Positions 20,568-40,980 are shown, counted from the stretch's first letter. The stretch is DNA of 64,000 nucleotides from Methylomicrobium sp. (GCA_018333785.1 JAGXSU010000108.1:15301-79300); one strand, 5' to 3'. Numbers and translations: made by a program. The notes: generated from the sequence alone by a model not told the origin.

Positions 20568-20590
20568 GGCGGTTTTCGATCAGGAAAGGG

Positions 20591-21148: not shown

Positions 21149-21397
21149 AACGTTTCTCCCTGTTTTATTAATTTCATGACTATAAATTTTAGCCGAGTTT
21201 ATCATTAATACAGGGGGGTCAAGCATTTTGATTGAATTTTGAAGCTGTCTTGATCCGCATCAATGCGCTAATGTTAATCCAATATCAGCAGGGGTTGGGT
21301 GCTTTGAAAGTGTCGACCGAGGATGCTGTTTTCCTGCAACGGAATCGGCATCCGTCGGTGCCGATGTAAAGTGATGCGGTAAAAAATGCTCAAACAA

Positions 21398-21445: not shown

Positions 21446-22648
21446 TTAGAAGCGAATGATTGCGTCAGCTGAAATCAATACTTGGTCGTCTTCACTGCCG
21501 TCATCAAAAGCCTTGCCTTGGTCTACCCAGTCGTATCTGACTTCAGGACGAAGCGTCAACCATGATAAGGGAGAATAATTTACGCCCGCGGTCAAGGCGA
21601 AATAATGATTGTCTTGTGCAACAAAGCTGTTGCTTCTGCCTATGCCAAGAACCCTTGCTCCGTCTTCATCTCTGAACCACTCAAATCGAATGCCGGTAGA
21701 TACTTGGTCGTTAACTGCATAAGTCAGGTATTGATTGATACCGTACCAGTTAGCAGCGCCGCCGGTGGGTCCGTTTTCTTGTGTGCCGTAATCGTGTTGC
21801 AGCGTATAGTGCAGGCTGTCGGTGATGTCATGATTGACCACGATGCTGTACATGGAACGGTGATCATCGTTTTGCGCTTGCCAGTCACCCTGGTCACCGC
21901 CAATATAAGCAAGGGCTACCGAGGTTTTTTCGTTATCGGTCGTATAAGAAACCGAACCTAAGAAATTGGCCGGTTCCTGAAAGAATGAATCCCACCCTGA
22001 TACGACACCACCGGTGACACTGATGTTTTTGTTAATAGGATAAGTGAATAACGCGCCGGTATGGGTAAACGGTTCGCCGTACTGCATGGTGTAGGCATGA
22101 GAATAGAAGAAATTATCCGGTACGGTATCCACTTCGTTGCCGATCAGCGTATAGAAATGACCGATTTTGGCCGTAATGCCGTTGCCGATGGGTGCAAATA
22201 CTGTTGCGTAGACTTGTGGAAAAGCAAGGCTGTAGAAGGAGGTGGTATCTGAGTCGACCAGTTTGTTGTCAAAATTATTTTGGGTGATGAATCGAGCATC
22301 TGTTCCGTAAACAACATCTGCTCTGAAACCGAAATCCCAACCGCTGCCCTCGGTATCGACCGCTCTTTCAACATAGCCGTAGAGCTGATTCATATGAACT
22401 TCGTTGGCGCGGTCGTTAAAAGTAACCGGTCCGTTGAAGTTGTCTCTTGGGTCGTCGGGGTTGCCAGCGATACCGCCTGAGACCCAGCCGCCAAATTCTA
22501 TCCCCAAATCGTTCAGGGCGTTAACGTTAACACCTGTCAGACTTTCAATCGCACCTTCACCTTCTGCGAGTGCTAATAATGGGGAGCACAGCAATGCGCT
22601 ACAGATCGTAACCTGTAATCCCGTGTTCATTTTGTTTTTTGCTGACAT
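21446..22648 (-). CDS. Outer-membrane beta-barrel porin-like protein
   Basis: Signal peptide ...LLALAEGEG, alternating aromatic/Gly-rich beta-strand pattern, and a C-terminal ...ADAIIRF with terminal Phe. Confidence 0.7.
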   Translation of the reverse strand: MSAKNKMNTGLQVTICSALLCSPLLALAEGEGAIESLTGVNVNALNDLGIEFGGWVSGGIAGNPDDPRDNFNGPVTFNDRANEVHMNQLYGYVERAVDTEGSGWDFGFRADVVYGTDARFITQNNFDNKLVDSDTTSFYSLAFPQVYATVFAPIGNGITAKIGHFYTLIGNEVDTVPDNFFYSHAYTMQYGEPFTHTGALFTYPINKNISVTGGVVSGWDSFFQEPANFLGSVSYTTDNEKTSVALAYIGGDQGDWQAQNDDHRSMYSIVVNHDITDSLHYTLQHDYGTQENGPTGGAANWYGINQYLTYAVNDQVSTGIRFEWFRDEDGARVLGIGRSNSFVAQDNHYFALTAGVNYSPLSWLTLRPEVRYDWVDQGKAFDDGSEDDQVLISADAIIRF

Positions 22649-23359
22649 AAGTGGTTCCTACTGTGGTTTGAATTAAAAATTATTTAACTAACAAGGCGTT
22701 AGCCTTAACTTTTAAGTAGTCAGGTTAATTAACTTTTTAACTTAATGATAACTTTCATTTCATTATGGTCATTGTTGCTTATATGACAAATTGCAGTATT
22801 TAAACGACATTGTGATTAGACAAGAGCAGTATCTATGCCGATTCTGTGAGTTTATGAAATAATTGAACTTCATGGTTTTCTGCTCGGCTAAAGAAGGTCT
22901 TTACGCACAAAATAGGAGCAAAAAAGAGTTAAAATGCTCTTGTTTGGTGCGGCAAGGGGTGCGGTTCATGTTTTGGTGCAAGCCTGTTGTTTTTGCCTGA
23001 ATCAACGGTACAGATTGAGTTGAACAGCTACACCGCGTTTTGCAGATAGACGGTGATTCCTGTTCAGGACTTAACAGGATTTTGTTGCTTAATCTCAATG
23101 AATTAACTTTAGCTATCGAGTTTCGTTCAATATAATTTCCAAGAGCACGAATGATCGGCAGATATGCTATAAGTGAATTCTTATGGGTTGACCCTGGCAA
23201 TTCCGGTGATCAATTTATAAGACGCTGGCACCTAGTCCTGAATTAGTGCGGGTAGGTTTCCCATAGGAAAAGGGAAGGCAAGAGCCGTTTTGCGGCTTTT
23301 ACACCACAGTTTGCCCACATTGAGATACCCGTTTAAAACTAATTAAGTCGAGACAATCT

Positions 23360-24487
23360 ATGGAAAATTTAATGTTGCTCTGGCAGAGCACTGGGTTCTA
23401 CAGCATACAGCTGGGACAGACTCTGATGATGGCGGTGGGTTTTTTGCTGTTGTTTCTGGCGATAAAAAAAGGCTTCGAGCCTTTGTTGTTGCTGCCAATT
23501 GGTTTCGGTGCGGTTTTGAGTAATATACCGGTTGCGGGAATGTCTGAAGAAGGCGGGTTGCTTTATTACCTTTATTTCGGTATCAAGACGGGCTTATTTC
23601 CGCTCTTGATATTTATGGGCGTCGGTGCCATGACCGATTTCGGACCGATGCTGGGAAATCCAAAAACGCTTTTTTTGGGTGCGGCAGCCCAATTTGGAAT
23701 ATTTGCAACTTTATTAGGTGCGCTGGCCCTTAACTTGGTTCCTGGGATGGAATTTACCATGAAAGATGCGGCTGCAATTGCGATTATCGGCGGGGCGGAC
23801 GGTCCAACAGCCATTTATGTGGCTTCAAAACTCGCGCCCGATATGTTGGGTGCGATTGCGGTAGCGGCTTACTCTTATATGGCATTGGTGCCGTTAATTC
23901 AACCTCCGATTATGCGGGCATTGACAACAGAACAAGAGCGCTTGATTGAAATGGAGCAGCTTCGTATTGTCAGTAAAACCGAAAAAATCGCCTTCCCTTT
24001 AATGCTTCTCTTGTTAACAGCGCTACTTTTGCCTTCAGCAGCGCCACTCGTGGGGATGTTTTGCTTCGGTAATTTAATGAACACCTGTGGTGTAGTGGAA
24101 CGCTTGAGTAAAACTGCGCAAAATGAATTGATCAATATTGTGACCATATTTCTGGGTCTTTCCGTGGGCTCCAAGTTGAGTGCCGATGCTTTTTTGAAAT
24201 ATGAGACGCTGGGGATACTGGCGTTAGGTGCAATTGCTTTTTGTATCGGTACTGCGGCGGGTGTGGTGATGGCCAAAATAATGAACAAATTCAGTAAAAC
24301 GCCTATAAATCCGCTGATTGGCGCGGCGGGGGTATCGGCCGTTCCTATGGCCGCAAGAGTCGCAAATAAGTTGGGTTTGGAAAGCAATCCGCATAACTTT
24401 CTTCTGATGCATGCGATGGGGCCGAATGTGGCCGGCGTCATTGGCTCTGCGGTAGCCGCCGGTATCCTGTTAAGTCTGGTGCATTAA
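23360..24487 (+). CDS. oadB: Sodium-translocating decarboxylase beta subunit (OadB/GcdB/MmdB family)
   Basis: [31 protein letters not shown] (the conserved Asp region) and [14 protein letters not shown] motifs typical of OadB. No alpha or gamma subunit gene is adjacent. Confidence 0.85.
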
Positions 24488-24505
24488 AGAAACGGGCAAT
24501 GGTCA

Positions 24506-24532
24506 GGCACTCACAGAGTTGCTGTGGGTGCC
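24506..24532 (+). other. Stem-loop just after oadB (no T-run)
   Basis: ggcactcacag-agttg-ctgtgggtgcc forms an 11-bp stem with one G-U pair. Confidence 0.4.
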
Positions 24533-24791
24533 GGTGGTAACGATGATTGATTGGCTGTGTGCGGTTTTTACTGCAGAAACGTTAACAAACTGTTCCAGAT
24601 TTAACATGAACATTGTTTAGTTTAAAAGCTTTCTGCGGGCAAGCATTTAAATCAAATTTCCAGCGCCTGTTAATTTAGTAAATACCTGTAAAACGCTTGA
24701 GCACTTCGCTTCAAGGCCCCCTTCATCGATTCCCAAAGGCCAGAGGCTTTCAAGGCAGCGTTGTGGCGGGCAAGATAAAAAGAAATTTATT

Positions 24792-26378
24792 ATGATCATA
24801 CTCAGCGCATTACTTTGGACACCGGCAGTGGGGGTGCTTTTTTTGGTGTTGACACCGGGCAGGCATTCTCAGCTGATCCGTGGGTTGGGTAATCTGTTTG
24901 CCTTTATCGCACTTTTATTGGCCTGTTGGGTGACCTATCGGTATGACGCATCGGATGCCGGTTTGCAATTCAGCGAATATTATCCTCTCAATCCAAAACT
25001 CGGCAGCGCCTATGCCTTGGGTGTCGACGGGCTGTCGATACCGATGTTGGTGCTAGCCTGTCTTCTGACATCAATTGCTCTGCTTGCTTCATCATCGATC
25101 TCCGGCAGCGTCAAAGGCTACTATATCTGCGTTTTGTTACTTGAATTCGGGATGTTGGGCGTCTTTTTGGCTCAGGACTGGGCGTTGTTTTATATTTTTT
25201 GGGAAGTTACGCTGATTCCGCTGTTCTTTTTAATCGATCGCTGGGGCGGCAAGAGACGGCATGCCGCAAGTATGAATTTTGTGCTGTATACGATGGGCGG
25301 ATCGATTTTCATGCTGGTCAGTCTGTTGGCGATCAGTCAATACGTTCTTGAACATGGCGGATCACTGATGACCTCGATGAGTCAGGCCGCGGAGGATATG
25401 CCGCTCTATGAACAGGTCCTCGTGTTTTTGGGCTTTTTAATCGGTTTCGGTGTGAAAATGCCGGTTTTCCCCCTTCATGGCTGGTTACCGCTGGCTCATG
25501 TCGAAGCTCCCAGCCCCATCAGTATTCTGCTGTCCGGTATTTTGCTTAAAATGGGCGCTTATGGACTGATCAGGGTTGCCTTCATGTTGCCGGAAGCCAT
25601 AGAACTTTTACAGCCTTTACTGGTTTTTCTGGCCTTGTTCGGCATGCTTTACGGTGCTTTGCTTGCCTGGCGTCAAAGCGATCTCAAAGCCATGATTGCC
25701 TATTCTTCGGTCAGTCACATGGGTGTTGTGTTATTGGGTATCACCGCGCTGAATCACTCTGGTATGACCGGTGCCGTTTTGCAAATGACGGCTCACGGAC
25801 TGGTTGCAGGTGCTCTGTTTTTATTGATCGGTTTACTCTATGAGCGAACTCATACCCGTAATATTCAGGATTACAGTTCATTAATCAGAGTCACGCCCCG
25901 TTTTGCCATGCTGACTACACTGACATTACTCGCAGCAATGGGTCTGCCGGGTTCGGTCAGTTTTGTTGCCGAATTACACGCTCTGATTGGCGGGTTTCAG
26001 CAATGGCAGGGCTTGATGGTTTTTTTCAGTTTAAGTATTTTGATAGGCGCTGCATATTCGATCCGCACGATCGGGCTTTTGTTTACTGGGCCCGTCAAGC
26101 CGAAAATGCAGCATATTCCGGATTTAAAACCCGTTGAACTGGTTTCAGTCAGTATTCTGGTGAGCGGTATTTTGTTGTTCGGATTATTTCCTGCGCCGCT
26201 GATCAATCTTTCTACAGCCACCATAAACCATATGATTGATTCTATCAGTCACCGTGTTGATCATCTCGAAAGCCGCTCATCGCTAAGCAGCCAGCTTCTT
26301 CCTTTGGAACAACGTGCGAACTTGACCAGGGACGCCGGGCTTTTTCATGATGGCATTGACGCCGTCATCGTCAGGTAA
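24792..26378 (+). CDS. Complex-I subunit-4/NuoM-like antiporter-type membrane protein (PF00361-like), copy 1
   Basis: Polytopic. HGWLPLAHVEAPSPISILLSGILLKMGAYG matches the NuoM/NdhD TM7 signature. Confidence 0.85.
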   Translation: MIILSALLWTPAVGVLFLVLTPGRHSQLIRGLGNLFAFIALLLACWVTYRYDASDAGLQFSEYYPLNPKLGSAYALGVDGLSIPMLVLACLLTSIALLASSSISGSVKGYYICVLLLEFGMLGVFLAQDWALFYIFWEVTLIPLFFLIDRWGGKRRHAASMNFVLYTMGGSIFMLVSLLAISQYVLEHGGSLMTSMSQAAEDMPLYEQVLVFLGFLIGFGVKMPVFPLHGWLPLAHVEAPSPISILLSGILLKMGAYGLIRVAFMLPEAIELLQPLLVFLALFGMLYGALLAWRQSDLKAMIAYSSVSHMGVVLLGITALNHSGMTGAVLQMTAHGLVAGALFLLIGLLYERTHTRNIQDYSSLIRVTPRFAMLTTLTLLAAMGLPGSVSFVAELHALIGGFQQWQGLMVFFSLSILIGAAYSIRTIGLLFTGPVKPKMQHIPDLKPVELVSVSILVSGILLFGLFPAPLINLSTATINHMIDSISHRVDHLESRSSLSSQLLPLEQRANLTRDAGLFHDGIDAVIVR

Positions 26379-26383
26379 CATCC

Positions 26384-29300
26384 ATGCAACAGTCGACTCT
26401 TAATCATTCTGAAGATATTGGCGCTCTGCGCGAACAACTGATGGCTGTTTTGCATCATCTGGATCACGTGCTTCCCGGACAGGCGCCTATTGGTAACTTT
26501 GTTCACCATAACACTTTACACGGTTTCCAGCATTTGCCTTTTGAACAGGCTTTGGCTGAATTCGAAGCCCTGACCGGCATTAGCGGTTATTTGCCGGAAA
26601 TCCAATTTCGAGCCTTTTATCAGCAGGGCCGCATTAACGATAACGACATATTGGCTGCACTGAGTCATGAAACCCGTCTCGATCCGAGACAGGTGATTAT
26701 CAAAGTAGATACCAAAACAATCAGCATCAGTGAGATCGTTAATACGGTTTTGCTGCATGGATTGGAGCCGGTGAGTCCTGAGCGTTTCAACTGGCTGCAA
26801 ACCGAGTGTGCAGCGCTCAATTCGCTGCGCCCCGGTGTGTCTCAACAGGCGCGAGAGCAGTTAGTGGCAGATGAGGATGAAGCTGTTGCGATCAACAAAC
26901 TCTGGAACACTCTCCTGGATAAATTGGGCATCAATGACGTCAGGCTGCATCCGGAAAATCTCTTCGATATATCGGCCGAGCAAGCCGAAGACTGGCTGGC
27001 AAGAAGTAAGATGCAGCCAACGGCAATTCAAAATCTGACTGTTGTTCAACAAATTCAGGAGCAGGCAAGAAATACGTTGGATGCCCTGGTTGAAGAGATC
27101 GGTGACAACATTACCTTACGCGGATTTGTTTTAGCGCTGACCGGTATGGATATTCTGGATGATGTCCGCCCCTTGCTTATAAGAACCTGCGCATCGGCGC
27201 TGGACGAGGGACTTGCGCCATGGCAATTGCCTGATGTCAAGCGGCTGGGTCTCTATGCTGCCTGGCGCTTAACCGCCAGATACGATGCAAATCCTTTTTT
27301 TCAGGAACTTCCTGACTGGCCTATTCTTGAATCGCAGCTGCCGGATGATGCTGTGGATGCGATCGTGTTTCAATTAACCGCCCTGCAAGTTCCTCAGCAA
27401 CATTGGCCTGGCTATTTGCGTCGCTTAGCGCTGGAATTGCCCGGCTGGTCAGGCATCATCAACTGGCGTGAGCATAACCCAAACTACAAGACAGCAAACG
27501 GCGCGCAACCCACGCTAGCCGATTATCTGGCGATACGATTGACTCTGGACCGGCTCTGGCTCAATCGTCTGTGTGAAGGTACCTGGAAAATAGAGGCCAA
27601 ATTAGGCCGGTTGATCTCGTATTTCCAAAAAAATCTTGCCGAGTTTTGGGTGCGCCGCCAACTTTACCGGGGCGTGTTGCCCGAATACCTGAGTCAGTCG
27701 GCTGAATCCCTGATTTTATTGAGCAGGACTGAGCGGCAGGACAGGAAAGACTGGTGGCGCCTAGCAGAAGAGCTTTGGACATGGCAATCGAGTCCTTTAA
27801 CCCATCAGCACAAATCAAAAGAACATACGTTCTATGACAGCGGCTGGCGCTTGTTTTGTCTTTGTCAGCATTCAGGTTTAAACGCCCGGCACGTTCAATC
27901 GCTGAATAAAGCCGATCTGGAGAACCTGCTGATGGTTTTAGACAGTTTTGGTGTGGCTGACCGCAATAAGGTGTGGCTATACGCCTACGAACATAACTTC
28001 CGGGAAAATTTGTTTCAAGGGTTGCAGGCCAATTACGGCAGAGGGCGATGGGCAACGAGGCCCCGACGACCTGACGCGCAGGTGATGTTCTGTATGGATG
28101 AACGAGAGGAAAGTTTTCGTCGCCATCTTGAAGAAATAAATCCCGCAATAGAAACCCTGGGCGCAGCCGGTTTTTTTGGTGTTGCGATGAATTACAGAGG
28201 CCTGGATGATCATGCGATAACGCCGTTATGTCCGGTGGTTGTGACGCCGGTACACCAGGTTAATGAAATACCGGTGCCTGGGGCTGAATCGGCAATGGAC
28301 GCGCATCAAAAAGGTCTCGGCCGCTACAAAAAAGTCATCAATCTGGTGCATCAAAGTCTGCGCAGCCAGCTGTTTGCAGCCTATCCCTTGCTGTATGTCT
28401 TTGCGCCGCTACTGATTGTTAAACTGGTGATTAAATCGTTACTGCCAACGACTAACTACAAGCTGGAAAAATGGCTTTACAGTTCAATTGTAAAAACGGT
28501 TCCAACCGAACTTCAATTTACTTCAATTCCTCAATCCGCTGAGTCTGCGAGCGATGCACCGCAGTTCGGTTTTACCGATCAGGAACAAGCTGACCGTATT
28601 GCGCAATTGTTAAAGACGACCGGTCTGAGTTACGGCATGGCCCGCATTGTGTGTTTGATGGCGCACGGTTCGACAAGCCAGAATAATCCTCATGAGGCGG
28701 CTCATGATTGCGGCGCTTGCGGAGGACGAAGAGGCGGGCCTAATGCCCGTGTGTTTGCGGCGATGGCCAATCGCCCTGAGGTTCGGCGTTTGCTGCCTGA
28801 ACGCGGCATTACTATTCCGGAAGACACCTGGTTTGTGGGCGCCCAACACGATACCTGTAACGATATTATTACCTGGTACGACCTGGAGCGGATGCCGGTC
28901 GCTGTTAAGGCTGATTTCGAAACACTTGATTTACAGTTGATGAAGGCCAAGGAAAGAGCCGTGACAGAACGCTGCCGCCGGTTTTTCAACGCGCAAAATA
29001 AAAGCGGTGCAGCTGCGGTGAGACATGTGGAAGCCCGGTCTTATGATCTCAGTCAGGTTCGGCCCGAGTTCGGTCATGCCACCAATGCCTCAGCCTATAT
29101 CGGCAGACGTTCTGCGACACAAGGTTTGTTTTTGGACCGGCGGATGTTTCTGATTTCCTATGATCCTGCTCAGGATCCGGATGGAACAGTCCTGGAGTCG
29201 ATTTTATTGACTGCAGGCCCCGTCGGTGCGGGAATCAATCTCGAATATTATTTTTCAAGCGTCAATAATGAGCGTTTCGGTTGCGGGACAAAAATTCCCC

Positions 29301-29680
29301 ATAATGTGACCGGTTTGTTCGGTGTCATGGAAGGCGCAGCTAGCGATTTAAGAACAGGGCTGCCTTTGCAGATGGTCGAAATTCATGAAGCGATGCGTTT
29401 GCAGATTGTGACCGAGGCGTCTCCCGGCATTCTCGAGAAAATTTATCATCGCCAGGCCGGTTTGCGGGAGCTGATTGATGGCGGTTGGGTGCATCTGAGT
29501 ACACAAGATCCTGATACCGGGCAGCTTTTTATATTTGAGCGGGGTGCTGGTTTTGTTGCCTGGGAATCCGCGATACAAAAATTACCGCTAAGGGAAAGTT
29601 CGGAAGATTGTTATCGCACGGAAACCGAGGCGGTTCCCCCCATGCTGATTAAACAGCCCTTAATTTCAAACGGAGTGTGA
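26384..29680 (+). CDS. dabA: DabA-like protein (DUF2309/UPF0753, beta-carbonic-anhydrase-like subunit of DAB inorganic-carbon pumps)
   Basis: 1098 aa. N-terminal APIGNFVHHNTLHGFQHLPFEQA. CxD metal-ligand motif MFCMDEREE and H...C motif HEAAHDCGACGGRRGGPNAR. Confidence 0.85.
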   Translation: MQQSTLNHSEDIGALREQLMAVLHHLDHVLPGQAPIGNFVHHNTLHGFQHLPFEQALAEFEALTGISGYLPEIQFRAFYQQGRINDNDILAALSHETRLDPRQVIIKVDTKTISISEIVNTVLLHGLEPVSPERFNWLQTECAALNSLRPGVSQQAREQLVADEDEAVAINKLWNTLLDKLGINDVRLHPENLFDISAEQAEDWLARSKMQPTAIQNLTVVQQIQEQARNTLDALVEEIGDNITLRGFVLALTGMDILDDVRPLLIRTCASALDEGLAPWQLPDVKRLGLYAAWRLTARYDANPFFQELPDWPILESQLPDDAVDAIVFQLTALQVPQQHWPGYLRRLALELPGWSGIINWREHNPNYKTANGAQPTLADYLAIRLTLDRLWLNRLCEGTWKIEAKLGRLISYFQKNLAEFWVRRQLYRGVLPEYLSQSAESLILLSRTERQDRKDWWRLAEELWTWQSSPLTHQHKSKEHTFYDSGWRLFCLCQHSGLNARHVQSLNKADLENLLMVLDSFGVADRNKVWLYAYEHNFRENLFQGLQANYGRGRWATRPRRPDAQVMFCMDEREESFRRHLEEINPAIETLGAAGFFGVAMNYRGLDDHAITPLCPVVVTPVHQVNEIPVPGAESAMDAHQKGLGRYKKVINLVHQSLRSQLFAAYPLLYVFAPLLIVKLVIKSLLPTTNYKLEKWLYSSIVKTVPTELQFTSIPQSAESASDAPQFGFTDQEQADRIAQLLKTTGLSYGMARIVCLMAHGSTSQNNPHEAAHDCGACGGRRGGPNARVFAAMANRPEVRRLLPERGITIPEDTWFVGAQHDTCNDIITWYDLERMPVAVKADFETLDLQLMKAKERAVTERCRRFFNAQNKSGAAAVRHVEARSYDLSQVRPEFGHATNASAYIGRRSATQGLFLDRRMFLISYDPAQDPDGTVLESILLTAGPVGAGINLEYYFSSVNNERFGCGTKIPHNVTGLFGVMEGAASDLRTGLPLQMVEIHEAMRLQIVTEASPGILEKIYHRQAGLRELIDGGWVHLSTQDPDTGQLFIFERGAGFVAWESAIQKLPLRESSEDCYRTETEAVPPMLIKQPLISNGV

Positions 29681-29682
29681 TT

Positions 29683-31245
29683 ATGGCAAATTGGGCTTGT
29701 TTGATTCCGTTGTTTCCTTTGATAGCCGCGGTGATGATAGGACTGGGCTGTTTTTCCGGCTTATTGCCGTCATTGGCTTCAGAGCGCATCACGGCAAAAC
29801 TGGCGGTCTGGAGCTTATCGCTCAGTTGCTTGCTGGCGTTAGGGCTTTTGACGGCATTTTTGCCGGGTTATCAAACCCATGAGCATGCCCAGTTCGTGTG
29901 GCTGCAAAGTGGTGATTTACAATTGCCGCTGCGAGTGACTGTTAATTCATTAAATCTGGTTCTGGCCGGATTGTTTTCTATCATTTTTGTCATCGTTGCC
30001 CGGTTTTCAGTCAATTACATGCATAAGGAGCGAGGCTTTCACCGCTTTTTTTCTATTTTGTGCCTATTTGCGGCAGCGATGTTTTTGCTGGTTCTTTCCG
30101 GTTCAGCATTAAGCGCATTTATGGGTTGGGAAATCGCCGGAATTTGTTCATTCCTGTTGATTGCCTATGCTTACGACCGACCGGTAGCCGCCAATAATGC
30201 GGCAAGAGCGTTTATTACTAACCGGGTAGGGGATGCCGGGTTTTTGATGGGTATTGGTTTGAGCCTGCATTGGATAGGTTCTGCCAACTGGCAGGATATT
30301 AATGAGGGTGCGGCCGATTTGTTAGGAAATGATGCGGTCATTCTCGCACTCTGTTTTTCTGTAGCCGCGTTTGCCAAGTCCGCTCAAATTCCATTTTCAC
30401 CCTGGCTGTCAAGAGCGATGGAAGGTCCAACGCCATCGAGTGCGGTTTTCTATGGCGCTATTATGATCCATGCCGGTGTCATTGTAATTCTTACCTTACA
30501 ACCTTTGTTTGAAGCAGCCCCGTTGGCTATGGGCGTGATTGCCGTGGTTGGGCTGTTAACCGCATTTTATGGCTGGTTTTCCGGATTAACGCAGACGGAT
30601 ATCAAAAGTTCGCTGGTTTTTTCGGTCCAGGCTCAAATCGGTCTGATGTTTTTGGAATGCGGGTTGGGATTCTGGCAGTTGGCCGCCTGGCACTTGGGCG
30701 CGCATACGTTGGTGAGAAGTTATCAGTTTTTGACAGCCCCTTCTATTTTACATAATGCCCACGATAATCCCGTACGCACTGTCCCTTCCTTTTTGGCTGT
30801 CAGGCCGGGGCTATTTGCCGCAGCGCAGCAACGCTTATGGCTGGAGCCAGCCATCGAATGGGTGGTTGTGAAACCGGTCCGCCGGCTTGCAAGAGACCTG
30901 AGTTTTTTTGAAATACGCTTTGTCGACCCCTTGCTGGGTTCTCCTGCGCCAGCCATTCGTGCTATTTCAACACTGACTCAAATCGAGGAAAGAAAAATCG
31001 GCGCTCGTCTGGATAATGATGAGGACCGTTTCGCCACAGGCAGCGGTTTAGCGGGTAAGTTGACCGAATGGTCGGCGGGTCTGGTGAACTGGTTTGAATA
31101 TCATTTTGTATTGAGAGGTGTGGGTAAAGAATCAATCAAATACGGTAGAAAACTCGGTAAATCCGCAAATAAACTTGAGCAGATTTTGCAGATGCCCCGA
31201 TATCTGGTGATTTTTGTGCTCATCAGCCTGCTGATCGCTTCCTGA
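29683..31245 (+). CDS. dabB: NuoL/MrpA-like antiporter-type membrane protein (DabB-like)
   Basis: FSPWLSRAMEGPTPSSAVFYGAIMIHAGV is a NuoL-type signature. The ATG at 29683 has GGAG 7 nt upstream; the ORF track gives GTG at 29677. The C-terminus is an amphipathic stretch plus a final TM segment YLVIFVLISLLIAS. Confidence 0.8.
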   Translation: MANWACLIPLFPLIAAVMIGLGCFSGLLPSLASERITAKLAVWSLSLSCLLALGLLTAFLPGYQTHEHAQFVWLQSGDLQLPLRVTVNSLNLVLAGLFSIIFVIVARFSVNYMHKERGFHRFFSILCLFAAAMFLLVLSGSALSAFMGWEIAGICSFLLIAYAYDRPVAANNAARAFITNRVGDAGFLMGIGLSLHWIGSANWQDINEGAADLLGNDAVILALCFSVAAFAKSAQIPFSPWLSRAMEGPTPSSAVFYGAIMIHAGVIVILTLQPLFEAAPLAMGVIAVVGLLTAFYGWFSGLTQTDIKSSLVFSVQAQIGLMFLECGLGFWQLAAWHLGAHTLVRSYQFLTAPSILHNAHDNPVRTVPSFLAVRPGLFAAAQQRLWLEPAIEWVVVKPVRRLARDLSFFEIRFVDPLLGSPAPAIRAISTLTQIEERKIGARLDNDEDRFATGSGLAGKLTEWSAGLVNWFEYHFVLRGVGKESIKYGRKLGKSANKLEQILQMPRYLVIFVLISLLIAS

Positions 31246-31249
31246 GGGC

Positions 31250-32824
31250 ATGATGGCTATTCAATTATTTTCATGGTCTGAAACTGCGGCATTTCCGGTG
31301 TTGAGTGTCATGACATTTATTCCTTTGGTGGCAGTCATTATCATCAGCGGGTTCAAGTCCGAGACGCTTACGATAAAAGTCAGTTTTACTGCGGCAATTG
31401 TTAACGTGCTGCTCGGTATTTATTTGCTGATCATCTTCGATTCCGAAACAGCGGGAATCCATTTGTCTGAAAGGGTCGAGCTGCTGGGCATGACCTACCG
31501 CGTCGGTGTCGACGGCACGAATATTCTGTTTATACCTTTAACAGCCGTCGTGTCGCTTTTGGCGCTGACGTATACCCGTATCACCCGCCATGCTCACGAT
31601 ACGTTGCTAATTTCCTGTTTGCTGGGATATGAAGGCATTCTGATTGGTGCCTTTTCGGCGTTGAATTCACTGCAATTCTGGTTGTGGAGTGCACTGGAAT
31701 TGTTGCCGGTGACTTTTCTAACGATTTATGCGGGCACAGGCCTTAATCGGCGCATGATTATTTTCAGAATTTTGCAGTTCTGGATTTTCGGTCTTGCTAT
31801 GACCTTGACCGGTTTTTTGCTCTTATCTTTCGGACTGGAAAAAAACGGTATGCCATTGACTTTCGATTGGCTGGCATTGAAGCAGCATAACGTTTCGCTG
31901 GATAACGAAGCGTTGATATTTATGCTGTTGTTTTACGGCTTTTCAGTCAGGATGCCATTATTCCCGTTTCATGGCTGGTTGCCGATGATTGCCGAACAAG
32001 GTACGGTCGCCAGTGCTGCGATTTTTCTGGTTGGGTTAAAGCTGGGTATTTATGCGGTGATCCGCTTCATATTGCCGCTGGTTCCCGGCGCGGCTGAGCA
32101 ATGGGCGGGGTTTGTCGTCAATTTGGGGTTGATCGGTATTTTTTACGGTGCGCTACTGGCGTTGATGCAGATCAATATTCGACGGCTTATGGCTTTTGCC
32201 GTCATCAGTCATACCGGCATGCTGGTTATCGGCATATTTTCGTTCAACGATTACGCCCTGGAAGGCGTGCTTCTTTTATCTGTTGCTTACGGACTTGCGA
32301 CGGCCGGGATGCTGTTCAGTGTCGGGTTGATTTATGAAAGGAGCCGAACCGCATTTTTGCCGAGGCTGGGCGGTTTGTTTGAAACCAATTCAACCATAGC
32401 CATTTTATTTCTGATTTCTTCGCTCAGTACTATGGTCATGCCGGGAACGCCGGGATTCGATGCGGCTCACTTGCTGATTGAAGGTACGATAGAAGAGCAC
32501 GGCTGGTTTGTCGCAGTCGCAATTTTAGTCGGTAACGTGCTTGCCGCCGGTTTTCTTTTACGGGCTTTTCAGCGGATATTTATTGCCAATCCCAAGCGTG
32601 CGCATCAACCTTTCAGTACGTCCCATCACCCCGTCGTGATTGAACGTATTATCACCGTGGTGATTTGTTTGCTGTTGATCGGAACCGGCTTTTATACAAC
32701 GCCCTGGTTAAAGTACATCGACCAGGACGCATCGGCTATTGGTGAGCATTATCCCGAACACGGATCGCATCATGCTAATGAACCGGTCCCCGAATCCATT
32801 GACAACCCAGGAGACCAGCCGTGA
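31250..32824 (+). CDS. NuoM-like antiporter-type membrane protein, copy 2 (divergent signature)
   Basis: HGWLPMIAEQGTVASAAIFLVGLKLGIYA. Polytopic. Starts 4 nt after the upstream stop. Confidence 0.8.
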   Translation: MMAIQLFSWSETAAFPVLSVMTFIPLVAVIIISGFKSETLTIKVSFTAAIVNVLLGIYLLIIFDSETAGIHLSERVELLGMTYRVGVDGTNILFIPLTAVVSLLALTYTRITRHAHDTLLISCLLGYEGILIGAFSALNSLQFWLWSALELLPVTFLTIYAGTGLNRRMIIFRILQFWIFGLAMTLTGFLLLSFGLEKNGMPLTFDWLALKQHNVSLDNEALIFMLLFYGFSVRMPLFPFHGWLPMIAEQGTVASAAIFLVGLKLGIYAVIRFILPLVPGAAEQWAGFVVNLGLIGIFYGALLALMQINIRRLMAFAVISHTGMLVIGIFSFNDYALEGVLLLSVAYGLATAGMLFSVGLIYERSRTAFLPRLGGLFETNSTIAILFLISSLSTMVMPGTPGFDAAHLLIEGTIEEHGWFVAVAILVGNVLAAGFLLRAFQRIFIANPKRAHQPFSTSHHPVVIERIITVVICLLLIGTGFYTTPWLKYIDQDASAIGEHYPEHGSHHANEPVPESIDNPGDQP

Positions 32825-34371
32825 TTGCCGCCGGTTTTCCATTGCTAAGCTGTCTTATTCTTTTGCCTTTGCTGGGTGCTCTTGTTACAGGGTTGTGTAA
32901 AGAGCTGAATTCGGCCAAACGAGTGGCCTTAGGGTTTGCCGTCATTGAGCTGATGATTGCGCTCTTTCTGGTGAGCGCCTTTGATATCAATCAAGGCAGC
33001 CGTTTTCAGTGGGTTGAGCATTACGCATGGATACCCAGTCTCAACATTGATTTTATTGTGGGTGTGGATGGTATTTCTTTACTGTTTTTGCCTTTATCTG
33101 CCTTATTGACGGTATTAACCATACTAGCTTCCTGGAATTCTGTCACGACGCTGACTCGTTTTCATTTTGCGCTGCTGCTTGTTCTGGAAGGCATTACGCT
33201 GGGCGTTTTTAGCGCTTTGGATATGATGTTGTTTTTCCTGTTCTGGGAATTAACCCTGCCGCCGATTTTCTTTTTGATCGGTTTATGGGGCATGGGGCCG
33301 CATCGGCGCGCCGCCGCCCTTAAATACACGCTGTACATGCTTTTCGGTGGTGTCCCATTATTATTCGCCATTATCATGCTGGGTATGAATCATGCTGTTC
33401 AAGCAGGCGGGCACATTCCTGAAGATTTGTCTTTCAGCTTTCCCATTTTGCTGAGCACGCCGCTTCCTGAAAATTTACAGCCAGTCATTCTGCTGCTGCT
33501 TTTATTGGGTTTTGGCGTTAAAGCGCCGTTGATTCCGTTTCATACCTGGCTACCTACGACAGCAATGGAAGCGCCGACGCAAATGACGGCATTATTGACA
33601 GGTTTAAAATTGGGTGTTTTCGGTATTCTCCGGTTTGCCTTGCCTTTGGCGCCTTCTGCGGCTATCGAATACAGCTGGATAATTGGAATACTCGGCGTCA
33701 CCACGCTGATTTACGGCAGTCTGATTGCGATTAAGCAGACCAATTTAAGAAGTATTTTAGCTTATGCGAGTTTGAGTCATGTCGGCTTGGTCATCGTGGG
33801 TATTTCCGCATTTAATATGCAGGGTATACAGGGCGCTATTTTTCAATTATTGAATTTTACGTTGATTGCCAGTTGTCTGATGCTGATGGCCGGTTTTATT
33901 CAGCACCGTATTGGCAGCACGGAAATCATTCATCTTGGTGGTTTGGCCAAAACCATGCCCCGATTGGCAACGCCGTTCTTTTTATTCGCTTTTGCCAGTA
34001 TCGGTGTGCCCGGTACCAGCGGTTTTCCTGCCGAATTATTGTTGTTCATCGGCGTGCTCGATACTTATCCCAGTCTTGCGATTACGGCAATGCTGGGAGC
34101 CATTATCGGTGCAACCTATATCATTAACTTCATGAGGCGAGCCTTTTGGGGGCCTGCTGTCAATGCCGACATAGTTGATGCGGATGATCTGAAAAGTCGT
34201 GAGCTGGCGATACTGTGCATTCCTGCCGTGCTTGTCTTGATCTTCGGGTTATTTCCAAATTTGATATTGAATATCCATTATCAAGCTGCTGAAAAATGGC
34301 TGCTTCAATTGAACAGTCCTGTTAAGGCCAAAATTATTGCACCCGATTCCCCGGTTCGATCGAGTCAATAG
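32821..34371 (+). CDS. NuoM-like antiporter-type membrane protein, copy 3
   Basis: HTWLPTTAMEAPTQMTALLTGLKLGVFG. The GTG start overlaps the upstream stop (GTGA). Confidence 0.8.
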   Translation: MIAAGFPLLSCLILLPLLGALVTGLCKELNSAKRVALGFAVIELMIALFLVSAFDINQGSRFQWVEHYAWIPSLNIDFIVGVDGISLLFLPLSALLTVLTILASWNSVTTLTRFHFALLLVLEGITLGVFSALDMMLFFLFWELTLPPIFFLIGLWGMGPHRRAAALKYTLYMLFGGVPLLFAIIMLGMNHAVQAGGHIPEDLSFSFPILLSTPLPENLQPVILLLLLLGFGVKAPLIPFHTWLPTTAMEAPTQMTALLTGLKLGVFGILRFALPLAPSAAIEYSWIIGILGVTTLIYGSLIAIKQTNLRSILAYASLSHVGLVIVGISAFNMQGIQGAIFQLLNFTLIASCLMLMAGFIQHRIGSTEIIHLGGLAKTMPRLATPFFLFAFASIGVPGTSGFPAELLLFIGVLDTYPSLAITAMLGAIIGATYIINFMRRAFWGPAVNADIVDADDLKSRELAILCIPAVLVLIFGLFPNLILNIHYQAAEKWLLQLNSPVKAKIIAPDSPVRSSQ

Positions 34372-34681
34372 CTTAAAGTTTTAAATTTTGGCCCTTCTGA
34401 TGCAGGAATTTAAGGCCCCGAATTTTTTTATAAAGGGTGTGGGCTTTTTTCTTGCCGGTGAAAGCGGATATAATGCGCTTTGTTGCATTTAAATCAAAAA
34501 TGATGTTTTATTTCCACTAATTCTTTATTAAAATAGTCAGGAATTATCTTCCTGGTTAATGGTCTTATTTTCGTCATTACATCGCTTATGGGCTTTTCTA
34601 TAAGTCGGGCAAAGTTAAACGCAGTTCAGAATAGACGGAAGCACCCCGCAGTCCTTCCGAATCCAGAGATGAGGTTAAAAC

Positions 34682-35263
34682 ATGAAAGACTATTTAATTA
34701 TTTTGGTAAGTACCATCCTGGTTAACAATTTTGTACTGGTCAAATTTTTAGGATTATGTCCCTTTATGGGGGTTTCCAGAAAGCTTGAGACGGCTCTGGG
34801 TATGGGCTTTGCCACTACGTTTGTACTGACCCTGTCTTCAGTATGCAGCTATCTTGCGAATGAATATTTGTTGATTCCTTTGGAATTGCAGTATTTAAGA
34901 ACCATTACCTTCATAGTCGTCATCGCATTTGTCGTTCAATTTACCGAACTGGTTGTCCATAAAACCAGTCCCATGCTCTATCAGGTGTTAGGTATTTATT
35001 TGCCTCTGATTACTACAAATTGCGCAGTACTTGGTGTAGCTCTGCTTAACGTTCAGGCGCAAAATGGATTTCTTCAATCGGCATTGTATGGCTTTGGCGC
35101 TGCGGTAGGTTTTTCAATGGTGTTGACGCTGTTTTCAACGATTCGTGAAAAAATTGAGGTGGCTGATGTGCCGGTTCCGTTTAAAGGAAACGCCATTTCG
35201 CTGATTACGGCCGGATTGATGTCTATGGCGTTTATGGGCTTTTCCGGTCTGGTTAGAGTCTAG
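34682..35263 (+). CDS. rnfA: Rnf electron-transport complex subunit A
   Basis: 193-aa polytopic protein, [32 protein letters not shown], in the canonical rnfABCDGE order. Confidence 0.95.
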
Positions 35264-35370
35264 TTTCCAGGGAAGCAATAAAAAACGGATTGCACCGGTT
35301 TTAACCCGAAGATTTAAAGATGCCAGCGTGGTCTGGGTAGTTTGCAACCGATCATTTAGAACACAATAAA

Positions 35371-35904
35371 ATGATACTTATAATTTGCGCGACATTTGCT
35401 GTATTTGGTGTGGTGCTGGGTTTCTCGGCAGTTTATTTCAAGGTTCAAGGAAATCCTATTGTCGATAAAATTGAGGCGATATTGCCTCAAACACAATGCG
35501 GGCAATGCAGTTATCCAGGATGCAGACCCTATGCCGAAGCCATCGCATCGGGAGAGGCCGATATCAATCAATGCCCGCCCGGTGGTCAGGACGGCATCAA
35601 TGCTCTGGCTGATTTGCTGGGCCTGGAAGCCAAGCCTTTGAACGATGAATTTGGCGCAGTCAAGCCAAAAAGTGTCGCCGTGATTATCGAAGAGGACTGT
35701 ATTGGTTGCACAAAATGTATTCAGGCATGTCCTGTTGACGCCATTTTGGGATCCGCGAAAATGATGCATACGGTTATTGCCAATGAATGTACCGGCTGTG
35801 AGCTTTGTGTGGCGCCTTGCCCGGTAGACTGCATTGTCATGGAGCCGATTGAACAAACTATCAGTACTTGGCAGTGGCCGGAGCCGGAAAGAAAATATGC
35901 TTAA
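35371..35904 (+). CDS. rnfB: Rnf complex subunit B (Fe-S)
   Basis: [16 protein letters not shown]...QCPPGG plus two ferredoxin motifs, [12 protein letters not shown] and [12 protein letters not shown]. Confidence 0.9.
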
Positions 35905-37384
35905 TTTAGCGCGATTTCATGGCGGATTGCACCTGCCCAACAATAAGGAATTATCCAACCAGGCGCCTTTGCGTCAGGCAAGCATTCCTAAAAAACTGGT
36001 TTATCCGCTGATGCAGCGGCCAGGCGTTACTGTAGATCCTAAGGTTCAGGTGGGCGAGCGGGTGTTGCGGGGGCAGGTCATCGCACATTCCGATCATCCC
36101 CTTGCAACACCCGTTCATGCGGCCAGTTCCGGCGTGATAGAGGCTATTGAAGAGCGCTTGATACCCCATCCTTCCGGTATGGCTGACGTTTGTATCGTCA
36201 TCGCCACCGATGGCTTGGATGAAAGTCTGGTAACGCAGGGTGTAGCCGATTTCAGCAGCCAGGATCCTGCGTCAATCCGCACGGCGATTAAAAATGCCGG
36301 TATCGTCGGCTTGGGCGGTGCTGCTTTTCCCACGGCGATAAAGCTCAATCCCGGTCCGCAAAGAAAGCTCGATACCTTGCTTTTGAACGGCGCGGAATGT
36401 GAGCCTTATATTACCTGTGATGATTGCCTGATGCAGAATCAACCGGAGTCGGTGCTTGTCGGCGCCCAGATTTTGCTGCATTCACTTCATATCGAGCGCT
36501 GTATCGTCGCTATCGAAGACCATATGAAGCGCGCTTATGCCCGGCTTACCCAGGCAGTCGCTGCGTTAAATGACCCGCGCATAATCATTGTTCAGGTGCC
36601 GGCTATTTATCCTACCGGTGGAGAAAAACAGCTAATCAAGGTTGTAACCGGTAAGGAAACGCCCTCTGGGGGGATTCCTGCCGACATCGGAGTGTTATGC
36701 GTGAATGTCGGTACAGCATCGGCGGTTTATGATGCCGTTTGTAAAGGAAAACCGCTGACCGAGCGAGTGATAACCGTCACCGGCCGTGGGGTAAAAGAGC
36801 CGCAAAACAGGTATGTCCGCATCGGTACGCCGATCAGCGAACTCATCGAGCAATGTGGCGGCTACACTGAGCATGTCGAACGCTTGATCATGGGCGGGCC
36901 GATGATGGGTTTCGCCTTACCCGATGACGAGATCGCTGTCGTCAAGGCGACCAATTGTATATTAGCCGGAACCGCTGCCGATATTAACATCGGCAAGCAG
37001 GCCATGCCTTGTATACGTTGTGGCGATTGCGCCAAAGCCTGTCCTGTAGATTTGCTCCCGCAGCAATTGTATTGGCATAGCCGTGCTGGGAATCTGGATA
37101 AGTGTAAAGAATTCAGTTTGTTTGATTGTATTGAATGTGGCTGCTGTGAAGTGGTTTGTCCGAGTCATATTCCTCTGGTGCAATATTACCGGTCTGCAAA
37201 AAGTAAAGTGATTGCCAAAGCTAAAGAGGCTGAAAAGGCTGCTGTTGCCAAGCGGCGCCATGACATGCATCTGGAACGCAAAGCCAAAGAGCAGGCTGAA
37301 AAAGCCGAGCGTGCCCGATTGAAAAAAGAAGCATTAGCAAAAGTTAAACAAGCCAATGCAGAGAAAGAGGGAGTGACTCAATGA
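35897..37384 (+). CDS. rnfC: Rnf complex subunit C
   Basis: Starts [14 protein letters not shown], overlapping the rnfB stop by 8 nt. Contains [16 protein letters not shown] and the 4Fe-4S motifs [12 protein letters not shown] and [12 protein letters not shown], with a Lys/Glu-rich tail. Confidence 0.9.
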
Positions 37385-38412
37385 AATTTTCCACGGCGTT
37401 ATCGCCGCATGTGCAACCGGTCAACAGCGTCACCCGCGTCATGTTTGAGGTCATTGTTGCTCTCGTTCCCGGTATTATTGCCCTGGTATGGTTTTTTGGT
37501 CTGGGCGTTCTGATTAATGTGGTTCTGGCTGTTATTACCGCTTTGATGGCCGAGTCGCTGGTTCTGTTGGTGAGAGGGCGGCCGGTGTGGGTCAGTCTTA
37601 AAGACTTGAGTGCAGTTGTAACCGCGGTGCTTTTGGCTATTTCCTTACCGGCTATTGCGCCCTGGTGGGTGACGGTGACCGGAATTGTATTTGCCATTGT
37701 CATTGCCAAGCATTTGTACGGGGGTTTAGGTTATAACCCTTTTAATCCGGCGATGATCGGGTATGTGTTCTTATTGGTTTCTTTTCCTCTGCCGATGACC
37801 TCCTGGCCAGCAGTGGCAGGGCTGGGCACTATGACGCTGAATTTTCAGGATATTGCTCAACTGATATTCTTTGAGCGGATCCCGGAGAATGCCGATTATG
37901 ATGCTTTAACCATGGCGACGCCTTTGGATGCATTAAAAACCCAGTTGAGTTTACAAAAAACGGTATTGGAAGCTCAATCGGGTGCTGTATTCGGCTATCT
38001 GGCGGGAAAAGGTTGGGAGTGGGTGTCCTTGGCTTATCTGCTGGGTGGGCTCTGGTTAATGGTGCGTAAAATCATAAATTGGCATATACCGGTTGGGCTT
38101 ATTTTAGGCATATCGGTAATTTCCGGAATTTGCTATCTGATTGATGCGCAGCTGTATGCGCCTCCGGTGTTTCATTTGTTTGCGGGGGCGACCATGCTGG
38201 GTGCCTTTTTTATCGCGACGGATCCGGTTACTGCCGCGACCACAGTAAAAGGGCGCTTGATTTACGGGATGATGATCGGTGCGCTGGTTTATATCATCAG
38301 GGTCTGGGGCGGGTATCCGGATGCGGTTGCCTTCTCGGTGTTGCTGGCCAATCTTGCCGCGCCAGCGCTGGATTATTTCACTAAACCTCGCGTATTCGGA
38401 CACCGGGCATGA
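37381..38412 (+). CDS. rnfD: Rnf complex subunit D
   Basis: Polytopic, with FFIATDPVTAAT (FMN attachment region). ATGA overlap with rnfC. Confidence 0.9.
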   Translation: MKFSTALSPHVQPVNSVTRVMFEVIVALVPGIIALVWFFGLGVLINVVLAVITALMAESLVLLVRGRPVWVSLKDLSAVVTAVLLAISLPAIAPWWVTVTGIVFAIVIAKHLYGGLGYNPFNPAMIGYVFLLVSFPLPMTSWPAVAGLGTMTLNFQDIAQLIFFERIPENADYDALTMATPLDALKTQLSLQKTVLEAQSGAVFGYLAGKGWEWVSLAYLLGGLWLMVRKIINWHIPVGLILGISVISGICYLIDAQLYAPPVFHLFAGATMLGAFFIATDPVTAATTVKGRLIYGMMIGALVYIIRVWGGYPDAVAFSVLLANLAAPALDYFTKPRVFGHRA

Positions 38413-40368: not shown

Positions 40369-40542
40369 TGGTATTGTTACGCGCGAATCTGATGGCTTTT
40401 CAGGAACTCTTAATAGCCAGCAGGGTCACACACATGGATTATCGAAACAGCCGCATGTTCATTGCCGGTTCATGAGGCCACACTAATATCTGATTCAGAG
40501 CCGATTGGCTTATCTACAACAAAACACACTGGGATATACACT

Positions 40543-40932: not shown

Positions 40933-40956
40933 TTAGCTATCCAGTGCTTTAACGTT

Positions 40957-40980
40957 AAGGAGAGTTGCCAAGCTCTCCTT
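40957..40980 (+). other. Intercistronic stem-loop between the precursor and maturase genes
   Basis: aaggagag-ttgccaag-ctctcctt forms an 8-bp stem. No strong T-run follows. Confidence 0.4.

Follow-up and report, generated by a model that had tools for sequence, protein, structure and literature searches.

A conserved five-gene DabA cluster as a candidate enlarged, multi-module form of the DAB inorganic carbon pump

Introduction

Non-photosynthetic autotrophs capture CO2 mainly by means of DAB pumps, which are also candidates for carbon-concentrating engineering; their coupling mechanism received a structural treatment only in 2026, for two- and three-subunit forms only. The original DAB study, the cryo-electron microscopy papers on DAB2 and DAB1 and the 2024 review of the inorganic carbon (Ci) toolkit likewise deal with two- and three-subunit forms only, and one published DAB study dropped 'divergent operon structures' from its DabB tree. 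Here, we describe a five-gene cluster around dabA in a 64,000-nucleotide (nt) stretch of DNA from Methylomicrobium sp. (GCA_018333785.1 JAGXSU010000108.1:15301-79300), hereafter the window, in which the cluster occupies positions 24792-34371 on the + strand. We lean towards the view that the five genes encode one membrane complex, a vectorial carbonic anhydrase (CA) of the DAB family driven by the proton motive force (pmf), with a multi-module membrane part resembling the arm of complex I.

A brief remark on what appears to be this gene neighbourhood dates from 2017: Klimchuk et al. 2017 (COGNAT, PMC5700660) described a 'Clade C' in which ybcC (COG3002) precedes a nuoL homologue and is often accompanied by extra COG1008 (NuoM) and COG0659 (SulP) genes, and already suggested that more membrane subunits would mean more ions. 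A literature search turned up no study of the function or structure of the five-gene form; the enlarged DAB form is widespread, conserved, and never characterised. It points to an overlooked Ci-acquisition system of methanotrophs (Methylobacter, Methylomonas, Methylovulum), of ammonia- and nitrite-oxidising nitrifiers (Nitrosomonas, Nitrosospira, Nitrotoga), of sulfur oxidisers, and of wastewater Accumulibacter and Competibacter. An earlier note on this DNA, made from the window sequence, had contrasted the cluster with known DABs as if these always had two genes, which is wrong, because DAB1 has a third subunit, DabC, at the NuoM position.

Results

Gene content and order

All five genes lie on the + strand, in the order g1 (NuoM-like), dabA, g3 (NuoL-like), and g4 and g5 (both NuoM-like). 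The first, g1 (24792..26378), encodes a NuoM-like subunit of 528 amino acids (aa), and its public gene call begins at 24828. The dabA gene (26384..29680) encodes a beta-carbonic-anhydrase-like cytoplasmic subunit of 1098 aa with the PF10070 domain. It is followed by g3 (29677..31245), a truncated DabB-type (NuoL-like) subunit with transmembrane helices (TM) 1-11 only, which is 522 aa long from a GTG or 520 aa from the ATG at 29683, the start used in public gene calls. The last two genes are g4 (31250..32824; public gene call from 31253), which encodes a diverged NuoM-like subunit of 524 aa, and g5 (32821..34371), which encodes a NuoM-like subunit of 516 aa matching PF00361 and TIGR01972. A gap of 5 nt separates g1 from dabA; g3 follows dabA after 2 nt (ATG 29683) or overlaps it by 4 nt (GTG), g3 and g4 are 4 nt apart, and g4 and g5 overlap by 4 nt. 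The coordinates of the open reading frames (ORFs) thus confirm the five packed same-strand genes with gaps of 5, 2, 4, and -4 nt that the earlier note had read, and a profile check with Pfam and NCBIfam for PF10070 and PF00361 returned the same gene order. The motifs that it had quoted (MFCMDERE, HDCGACGG, WLPLAHVEAP, WLSRAMEGPTP, WLPMIAEQGT, and WLPTTAMEAPT) are all present in the translations.

Conservation of the five-gene order

More than 120 DabA homologues of ~1090-1100 aa, 55-60% identical, occur in Methylobacter, Nitrosospira, Nitrosovibrio, and related genera, and species-representative genomes contain at least 596 matching loci, most of which were not inspected for gene order. The gene-order survey covered the best 80 of these at least 596 loci (DabA identity 38-93%), with each ORF classified against the four window paralogues. 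The hosts include Methylococcales, Nitrosomonas, Nitrosospira, Nitrotoga, Thiothrix, Chromatiaceae, Magnetococcales, Accumulibacter, Sulfuricellaceae, and Rhodocyclaceae, as well as one metagenome-assembled genome (MAG) of Actinomycetota and one MAG labelled Bathyarchaeota. The exact order g1-DabA-g3-g4-g5 was found in 49 of the 56 evaluable loci (Gamma- and Betaproteobacteria, Magnetococcales, and others), and a further 24 loci, cut by contig ends, agree with it as far as they can be read. The extra genes are thus co-conserved with dabA, one of the points on which the earlier note had made its proposal depend.

Seven loci deviate from this order. The five-gene cluster is pseudogenised in L040, and in a Thiothrix MAG (L046, 6442-19114) the DabA-g3 module is tandem-duplicated inside the cluster (g1-DabA-g3-DabA-g3-g4...). 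In L063 only DabA and g3 are present, in L069 DabA stands by itself, and in L079 only g1 and DabA remain. L080 carries a g3-g4 fusion, with neither g1 nor g5 found within 8-kb flanks, and L085 is a six-gene actinobacterial form with four M-like genes, one upstream of DabA and three downstream. The second DabA of the duplicated Thiothrix locus is diverged, with HRS and GCGAC in place of HGS and DCGAC.

Identity between the paralogues is 24-34%, against 52-77% between orthologues when the window, Methylobacter, and Nitrosovibrio are compared. In a neighbour-joining tree, g1 was monophyletic in 30/30 bootstraps, g4 in 30/30, and g5 in 25/30, with E. coli NuoM as sister to g1. Because they form separate orthologous groups and are inherited together, the extra genes are ancient paralogues, neither recent duplicates nor stray nuo genes. 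The earlier note was therefore right to call the membrane subunits diverged paralogues, and the tree places its extra PF00361 genes in groups of their own, which speaks against the split Nuo or Mrp operon that it had considered. Compared with a 93-99% identical Methylovulum MAG, the ratio of nonsynonymous to synonymous substitution rates (dN/dS) was 0.048 for g1, 0.131 for DabA, 0.141 for g3, 0.047 for g4, and 0.079 for g5; all five genes are under purifying selection. This Methylovulum MAG is also the closest genome (93% DabA identity), indicating that the window comes from a gammaproteobacterial methanotroph.

The genes for NuoA/H/J/K/N, hydrophilic Nuo subunits, and MrpB/C/E/F/G are absent both from the flanks of the cluster in the window and from 128 flanking ORFs of 47 related loci, so that the absence reported in the earlier note holds well beyond the window. 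The flanks of these 47 loci are variable except for some recurrent Ci-related neighbours, namely, SulP (9 loci), beta-CA (3), and CsoSCA-like genes (3), and the Nitrosovibrio cluster has SbtA with PII as neighbours. A plasmid search returned canonical DabA only, at no more than 37% identity, and not the five-gene type. In Methylomicrobium lacus (L019, NZ_CP169217), a canonical two-gene DAB (1298-5817, -) stands divergently beside the five-gene cluster (6508-16009, +); it consists of a DabA of 871 aa and a DabB with the full TM set, and both forms are thus found side by side in one genome.

Indications of a single complex

The g3 and g4 of Competibacteraceae make up one polypeptide of 908-1048 aa. 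It is represented by 47 distinct clusters (90%) that come from numerous independent assemblies, and ~10-15 residues link the last TM of its g3 part to TM1 of its g4 part. This fusion indicates that g3 and g4 belong to one complex. The fusion loci keep g1 and DabA and are without g5. Together with the actinobacterial six-gene locus, the fusion further indicates that the number of M-like modules varies by lineage and that g4 is the closest partner of g3. In Competibacter, toxin-antitoxin genes (HigB-type, PIN/MazE) and a LysR regulator gene lie between dabA and g3::g4 (L091/L092, 9285-9988; L090, 1516-9910); the operon is interrupted by these insertions, yet its parts are all retained.

DabC of the Nitrobacter DAB1 operon weakly resembles the C-terminal half of g5 (17 bits) and that of g1 (8 bits), and in neither case did any of 500 local shuffles reach the score. 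This similarity above controls agrees with the published location of DabC at the NuoM position.

DabA

DabA matches PF10070 over residues 24-1036 (E 4e-244) and no NCBIfam model, and its only solved sequence relative is DabA2 (9rd0_A, E 4.7e-73). The zinc ligands of DabA2, C351, D353, H524, and C539, have been validated by mutation. The first two align with C570 and D572 in the motif FCMDER (codons 28091..28099, +), which are invariant in 81/81 family sequences, and the other two with H761 (81/81) and C776 (80/81) in the motif HGS...DCGAC (28664..28711, +). By this alignment, DabA keeps all four beta-CA-type zinc-site residues, as the earlier note had expected of its ligand motifs.

At the position of DabA2 Leu658, DabA has His898 (29075..29077, +), and His is found there in 81/81 family sequences. 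Leu658 is strictly conserved among DabA2 homologues, replaces the Gln/His of ordinary beta-CAs, and occupies a transition-state position (PMC13144422). The equivalent residue is also Leu in Nitrobacter DabA1, a Thiodictyon DabA2-type protein, and Staphylococcus MpsB. His898 was rejected as a unique marker of the five-gene form, because the two-gene DabA of M. lacus also has His.

The sole hydrophobic segment of DabA is a hairpin of residues 663-688 (28370..28447, +; A674-P675, K684), lying between two stretches that align to DabA2, at the site of the membrane-inserted 'finger/elbow' of DabA2 and DabA1. Residue 684 is Lys or Arg in 75 of 80 sequences, and a conserved acidic hairpin residue matching the essential Glu444 of DabA2 was not found in these 80. 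The AlphaFold2 (AF2) model of DabA places helices at 635-661 and 667-686. In a Foldseek search of this model, whose active-site loops are of low confidence, against the PDB (entries to 8 April 2026), no match fell below E 0.02, and neither 9rd0 nor beta-CAs were among the matches. As sampled, the five-gene DabA clade is 27-35% identical to DabA1, DabA2-type, MpsB, and M. lacus two-gene DabA, and it stood apart from these four references in 47/50 bootstraps.

The DabB-type subunit g3

g3 matches PF00662 and PF00361; its best NCBIfam models are those for NuoL, all below cutoff, and it aligns with NuoL and NdhF over residues 5-365 only, corresponding to TM1-11. In trees it grouped with the two-gene DabB of M. 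lacus in 37/50 bootstraps and with all DabBs, as against E. coli NuoL/M/N, in 32/50. It keeps E152, K234, H339, and H343 and has R347 in place of NuoL K342. Across the family, NuoL E144, R175, D178, K229, H334, and H338 are kept in 49-50/50 clusters, with H254 replaced by Tyr and K342 by Arg. g3 keeps the TM5 Glu in 50/50, but its place is taken by Phe, Ile, and Gly, respectively, in the DabB1, DabB2-type, and MpsA proteins sampled (one each) and by Ile151 in H. neapolitanus DabB2. In complex I, the TM5 Glu faces the neighbouring module and couples to it.

Hydropathy shows nothing hydrophobic in g3 from ~350 to 502, followed by one terminal TM helix. In comparison, canonical DabBs (one each of DabB1, DabB2-type, MpsA, and M. 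lacus) have ~4 hydrophobic segments after TM11, of which g3 has none before its terminal TM. By alignment and hydropathy, g3 is a DabB-related protein that has lost TM12-15, and the loss of four TMs would preserve the membrane topology. In the actinobacterial locus L085, g3 is 751 aa long, retains TM12-15, and has a tail of ~200 aa.

The C-terminal region of g3 (residues 384-506; 30826..31194, +) is predicted to be helical, partly amphipathic, and lateral-helix-like, as judged from the tail profile and a conserved motif, and it is followed by the predicted terminal TM anchor (31195..31242, +), which begins with PRYL. The pattern of the ~160-aa tail is conserved across 49 loci, with the motif LQRFWLD..LV+P..LA+D..FD. 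When the tail family profile was compared with 177,635 PDB sequences, the two best matches both fell where the lateral helix of NdhF begins (6hum_F 564-615, E 0.0026; 7wff_F, E 0.11). The tail and terminal TM described in the earlier note are thus real by hydropathy and resemble the start of the NdhF lateral helix by profile. We also considered whether tail length scales with the number of M-like modules, and rejected this, because the Competibacteraceae tail has about the same length without g5.

The NuoM-like subunits g1, g4, and g5

The three NuoM-like proteins all match PF00361 (g1, 3.9e-67; g4, 3e-35; g5, 4.8e-63) and pass the subfamily cutoff of TIGR01972 (NDH_I_M), with 477, 272, and 457 bits, respectively. 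Their identity to E. coli NuoM is 26-35%, and none of them reaches the cutoff of any NuoM equivalog model; all cluster proteins are below cutoff for the equivalog models of NuoL and NuoM. The MrpA and MrpD models gave scores of 120-175 bits, with cutoffs of 540-1100, and g1, g4, and g5 are far closer to NuoM than to MrpD models (e.g., 477 vs ~150 bits).

The best solved relatives of g1 are NdhD and NuoM. Its residues E138, K222, K253, and E394 correspond to E144, K234, K265, and E407 of E. coli NuoM, and NuoM E144, K234, K265, H322, H348, and E407 are kept by g1 in 50/50 clusters. g5 keeps E143, K234, K263, and E405, conserved in 48-50/50, with the TM11 His (NuoM H348) replaced by Phe; it is missing in the Competibacteraceae variant (L080, L090, L091). 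In the g4 of the window, the TM5 Glu is replaced by Ala148, the TM7 Lys by Arg234, and the TM12 Glu by Ala406, and the central K264 is kept. The same holds for the family, in which NuoM E144 is replaced by a hydrophobic residue (50/50), K234 by Arg (50/50), and E407 by Ala, Val, or Ile, and K265 is kept. To speak of four pumping modules would therefore be an overstatement, as of the three NuoM-like subunits only g1 and g5 keep the full channel residue set.

Surroundings of the cluster

The 304-nt intergenic region upstream of g1 (24488..24791, +), read directly from the sequence, is the presumed promoter site, but a promoter and terminator scan gave signals no better than shuffles and did not identify a promoter in it. 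Rfam had zero matches across window positions 22600-35000, and a Cup-like (CupA/ChpY) gene was not present with the cluster. The cluster is flanked by an orphan oadB upstream and by rnfABCDGE downstream. oadB (23360-24487, +), directly upstream of the operon, encodes the beta subunit of a Na+-translocating decarboxylase (OAD_beta, 2.4e-158); an alpha or gamma subunit gene was not found nearby, and the 700 nt upstream of it contain no plausible ORF. The rnfABCDGE-type operon (34682-40368, +) is complete, with RsxA and RsxC equivalog matches, and begins 310 nt 3' of g5. Rnf is a membrane ion-motive ferredoxin:NAD+ oxidoreductase, and its adjacency to a Ci pump was seen in the Methylomicrobium window genome only. 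We rejected oadB and rnf as parts of the system, because these flanks are not conserved in other lineages.

Further away, a small diverged beta-CA (45215-45790, -; Pro_CA, 43 bits) lies ~11 kb downstream of the DAB operon. Positions 40462-42602 (+) resemble a bufferin- or methanobactin-like cluster for a ribosomally synthesised and post-translationally modified peptide: an ORF at 40462-40932 encodes a small, secreted, Cys-rich protein with a signal peptide and repeated CGEG/KCG/TCG motifs, followed by an enzyme of the MbnB/TglH/ChrH family (41003-41860; PF05114, 4e-105) and a DUF2063 protein (41793-42602). Upstream there is a signalling block (15028-21226, -) encoding a PAS protein, a CheB-CheR fusion of 1091 aa that also carries PAS domains, and a PAS-GGDEF-EAL protein, after which comes an OmpL-like BBP2 porin (21446-22648).

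Discussion

Proposed mechanism

From these comparisons we infer the subunit order, the direction and number of the ions, and the coupling to catalysis. CO2 would diffuse into the cell and be hydrated to bicarbonate by cytoplasmic DabA at the putative Cys-Asp-His-Cys zinc site (C570, D572, H761, C776). DabA would sit on g3, with the hydrophobic hairpin (663-688, K684) inserted into it. The hairpin may thereby take the place of the lost TM12-15, the helices that are displaced by the hairpin in the solved DABs. The lateral-helix-like tail of g3 would act as a clamp, with its terminal anchor next to TM1 of g4. g4 would be mainly a coupling or structural neighbour of g3, probably non-conducting and a full-length counterpart of DabC, while g1 and g5 would be intact NuoM-type proton channels. 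Protons would flow inward down the pmf through g3, and probably through g1 and g5, and their passage would be relayed, in the manner of the complex I membrane arm, via the electrostatics of TM5 Glu, TM7 Lys, and TM12 Glu together with the tail clamp. The relayed signal may then gate the buried CA site so that it works in the hydration direction only. Compared with DABs of two subunits, each CO2 would thus be backed by more driving force or by a different 'gear'. Physiologically, the complex would presumably feed Ci into the carboxylation reactions of methanotrophs and into the CO2 fixation of nitrifiers and sulfur oxidisers.

The co-conservation of the genes, the g3-g4 fusion, the tail, and the TM5 Glu all speak for the multi-module DabA complex that the earlier note had proposed, and which, as it had suggested, may have a higher ion:CO2 stoichiometry or a different coupling ion. 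Nevertheless, several points weigh against our reading. As a complex, the enlarged DAB variant is a proposal drawn from sequence. Lacking the terminal charged residues, g4 may not conduct protons. The part-sets in L063, L069, and L079 are exceptions to the gene order. The Competibacteraceae tail keeps its length with one module fewer, which weighs against 'more modules, more protons'. By our own estimate, one H+ per CO2 is thermodynamically enough for large accumulation ratios, and the need for more protons is not obvious. The lateral-helix homology of the g3 tail rests on one modest match (20.6 bits), and hhalign of the g3 family with E. coli NuoL aligned residues 26-360 and not the tail. In the AF2 models, the active-site loops of DabA have a predicted local distance difference test (pLDDT) score below 50, and g3 has a usable TM1-11 core with the whole tail below pLDDT 50 and its helices of low confidence.

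The main rival explanation also assumes one complex but takes the NuoM-like subunits only as structural or regulatory scaffolds, with protons passing via g3 alone at the ordinary DAB stoichiometry. There is a precedent in DabC, which cannot be dispensed with although it contains neither proton residues nor a water chain (bioRxiv 10.64898/2026.05.01.722082). The state of g4, without both terminal Glu and with Arg for the TM7 Lys in 50/50 clusters, the dispensability of g5 in Competibacteraceae, and the sufficiency of one H+ per CO2 by our estimate would also fit. However, pure scaffolds would not be expected to keep the canonical NuoM channel residues in 48-50/50 clusters across deep divergence, as g1 and g5 do, or to show the g1 dN/dS of 0.048, and g3 keeps the inter-module TM5 Glu, which is lost in the sampled single-module DabBs. 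We consider this explanation unlikely, if worth serious attention.

We give distinctly less weight to a coupling other than simple H+ influx. The membrane modules might use Na+ or exchange it for H+, like Mrp, or might carry the proton released by hydration outward, as proposed for cyanobacterial NDH-1MS, and the complex would then tie Ci capture to the homeostasis of pH or Na+. A use of Na+ has been argued for MpsAB (PMC13144422), the Arg-for-Lys and hydrophobic-for-Glu changes of g4 could mark a different ion path, and the window operon lies between the orphan Na+-decarboxylase beta subunit and rnf. This neighbourhood is unconserved in other lineages, however, and the small Mrp subunits are all absent from the window and the 47 loci. 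In addition, g1, g4, and g5 score much higher with NuoM than with MrpD models, as in the 477 vs ~150 bits given above, and published work has shown DAB2 to be Na+-independent.

It is very improbable that the locus holds two independent adjacent systems, a DabA/g3 pump and a separate NuoM-like set for complex I or another antiporter, for although g1, g4, and g5 are publicly annotated as NuoM and pass the NuoM subfamily cutoff, and some loci have DabA with g3 only or with g1 only, the order is fixed in 49/56 evaluable loci, g1 precedes dabA and the gaps range from -4 to +5 nt, g3 and g4 are found as a fusion protein, the three distinct orthologous groups are 26-35% identical to E. coli NuoM and below the NuoM equivalog cutoffs, and there are no other Nuo genes nearby.

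Returning to the single pmf-driven complex, we suggest one tentative extension, which we regard as possible but somewhat doubtful. The enlarged DAB may be a redox-free 'complex I membrane arm', in which a CA head is gated by antiporter-like modules coupled electrostatically and serially, with a clamp like the lateral helix (HL), and in which the number of modules and the H+/CO2 gear ratio are tuned by lineage. Beside DabB there are no NuoM-like modules in DAB2, half a module in DAB1 (DabC), two in Competibacteraceae, three in the window, and four in the Actinomycetota variant. Under such a reading, DabC would be a relic of an M-like subunit, and His898 and Lys684 would reflect a different gating chemistry. 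If true, the enlarged DAB, with its HL-like clamp and its two NuoM-type channels intact, would be a small redox-free system for inter-module communication, a long-standing question of complex I, and would show how the energy spent per CO2 can be tuned.

Comparison with known systems

The core features of the DAB family are present in the translated cluster: a PF10070 DabA, the zinc ligands, and an adjacent NuoL-like DabB in the operon. The departures, by the same alignments, are the DabB TM count, the residues at Leu658 and Glu444, and the subunit composition. DAB complexes have the composition AB (DAB2, MpsAB) or ABC (DAB1), whereas there are five subunits here and four or six in the variants from Competibacteraceae and Actinomycetota, respectively.

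DAB2 of Halothiobacillus neapolitanus (DabA2-DabB2; PDB 9rd0; PMC13144422) shares the PF10070 DabA with its Cys/Asp/His/Cys zinc site, a hydrophobic finger at the equivalent place in the sequence, and a NuoL-like partner with TM1-11, conserved TM7 Lys, and conserved TM11 His. It differs in having two genes instead of five, a DabA2 of 827 aa instead of 1098 aa, Leu658 instead of His898, and the finger residue Glu444 instead of a conserved Lys/Arg. Moreover, DabB2 has Ile151 in place of the TM5 Glu of g3, and g3 is without TM12-15 and has a ~120-aa tail with a TM anchor. The DabB of the solved DABs has ~15 TM, with TM12-15 around the DabA finger, an arrangement that g3 does not share.

DAB1 of Thermocrinis albus (DabA-DabB-DabC; bioRxiv 10.64898/2026.05.01.722082) is similar in having a third membrane subunit at the NuoM position beside DabB and a long DabA, and its DabC is weakly similar to the C-terminal half of g5 and g1. 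However, DabC has ~250 aa and no channel residues, whereas the present cluster has three full-length NuoM-like subunits, two of them with complete channel residues. DabB1 keeps TM12-15 and is without the TM5 Glu, and the gene order dabB-dabC-dabA (Nitrobacter) differs from the M-dabA-dabB'-M-M found here.

The 'Clade C' operons of the COGNAT note appear to be the same gene neighbourhood. Its passage on them was written before DabA had a known function, proposes an exergonic reaction that pumps ions outward, and gives no analysis of subunit types, residues, DabB truncation, or fusions.

In the cyanobacterial NDH-1MS and NDH-1MS' complexes, CupA or CupB sits on NdhF3/NdhD3 or NdhF4/NdhD4. As proposed here, a cytoplasmic CA-like protein caps a row of antiporter-like subunits at its L-like end and CO2 hydration is vectorial, but the Cup proteins are unrelated to DabA and the complexes are driven by the NDH-1 redox module. 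g3 also scores only 165 bits with TIGR01960 (ndhF3_CO2), the cutoff being 589.

Finally, the membrane arm of complex I and the Mrp antiporters share with the cluster a set of several PF00361 modules that carry Glu in TM5 and TM12 and Lys in TM7 and TM8, an L-type subunit with an HL-like extension and a terminal anchor helix, and modules that themselves carry out no redox chemistry. They differ in that the present cluster has no Q-module, no NuoH/A/J/K, and no MrpB/C/E/F/G, in that its L-type subunit is without TM12-15, and in that the 'head' is a carbonic anhydrase. In complex I the chemistry drives H+ export, whereas here H+ influx would be expected to drive the chemistry.

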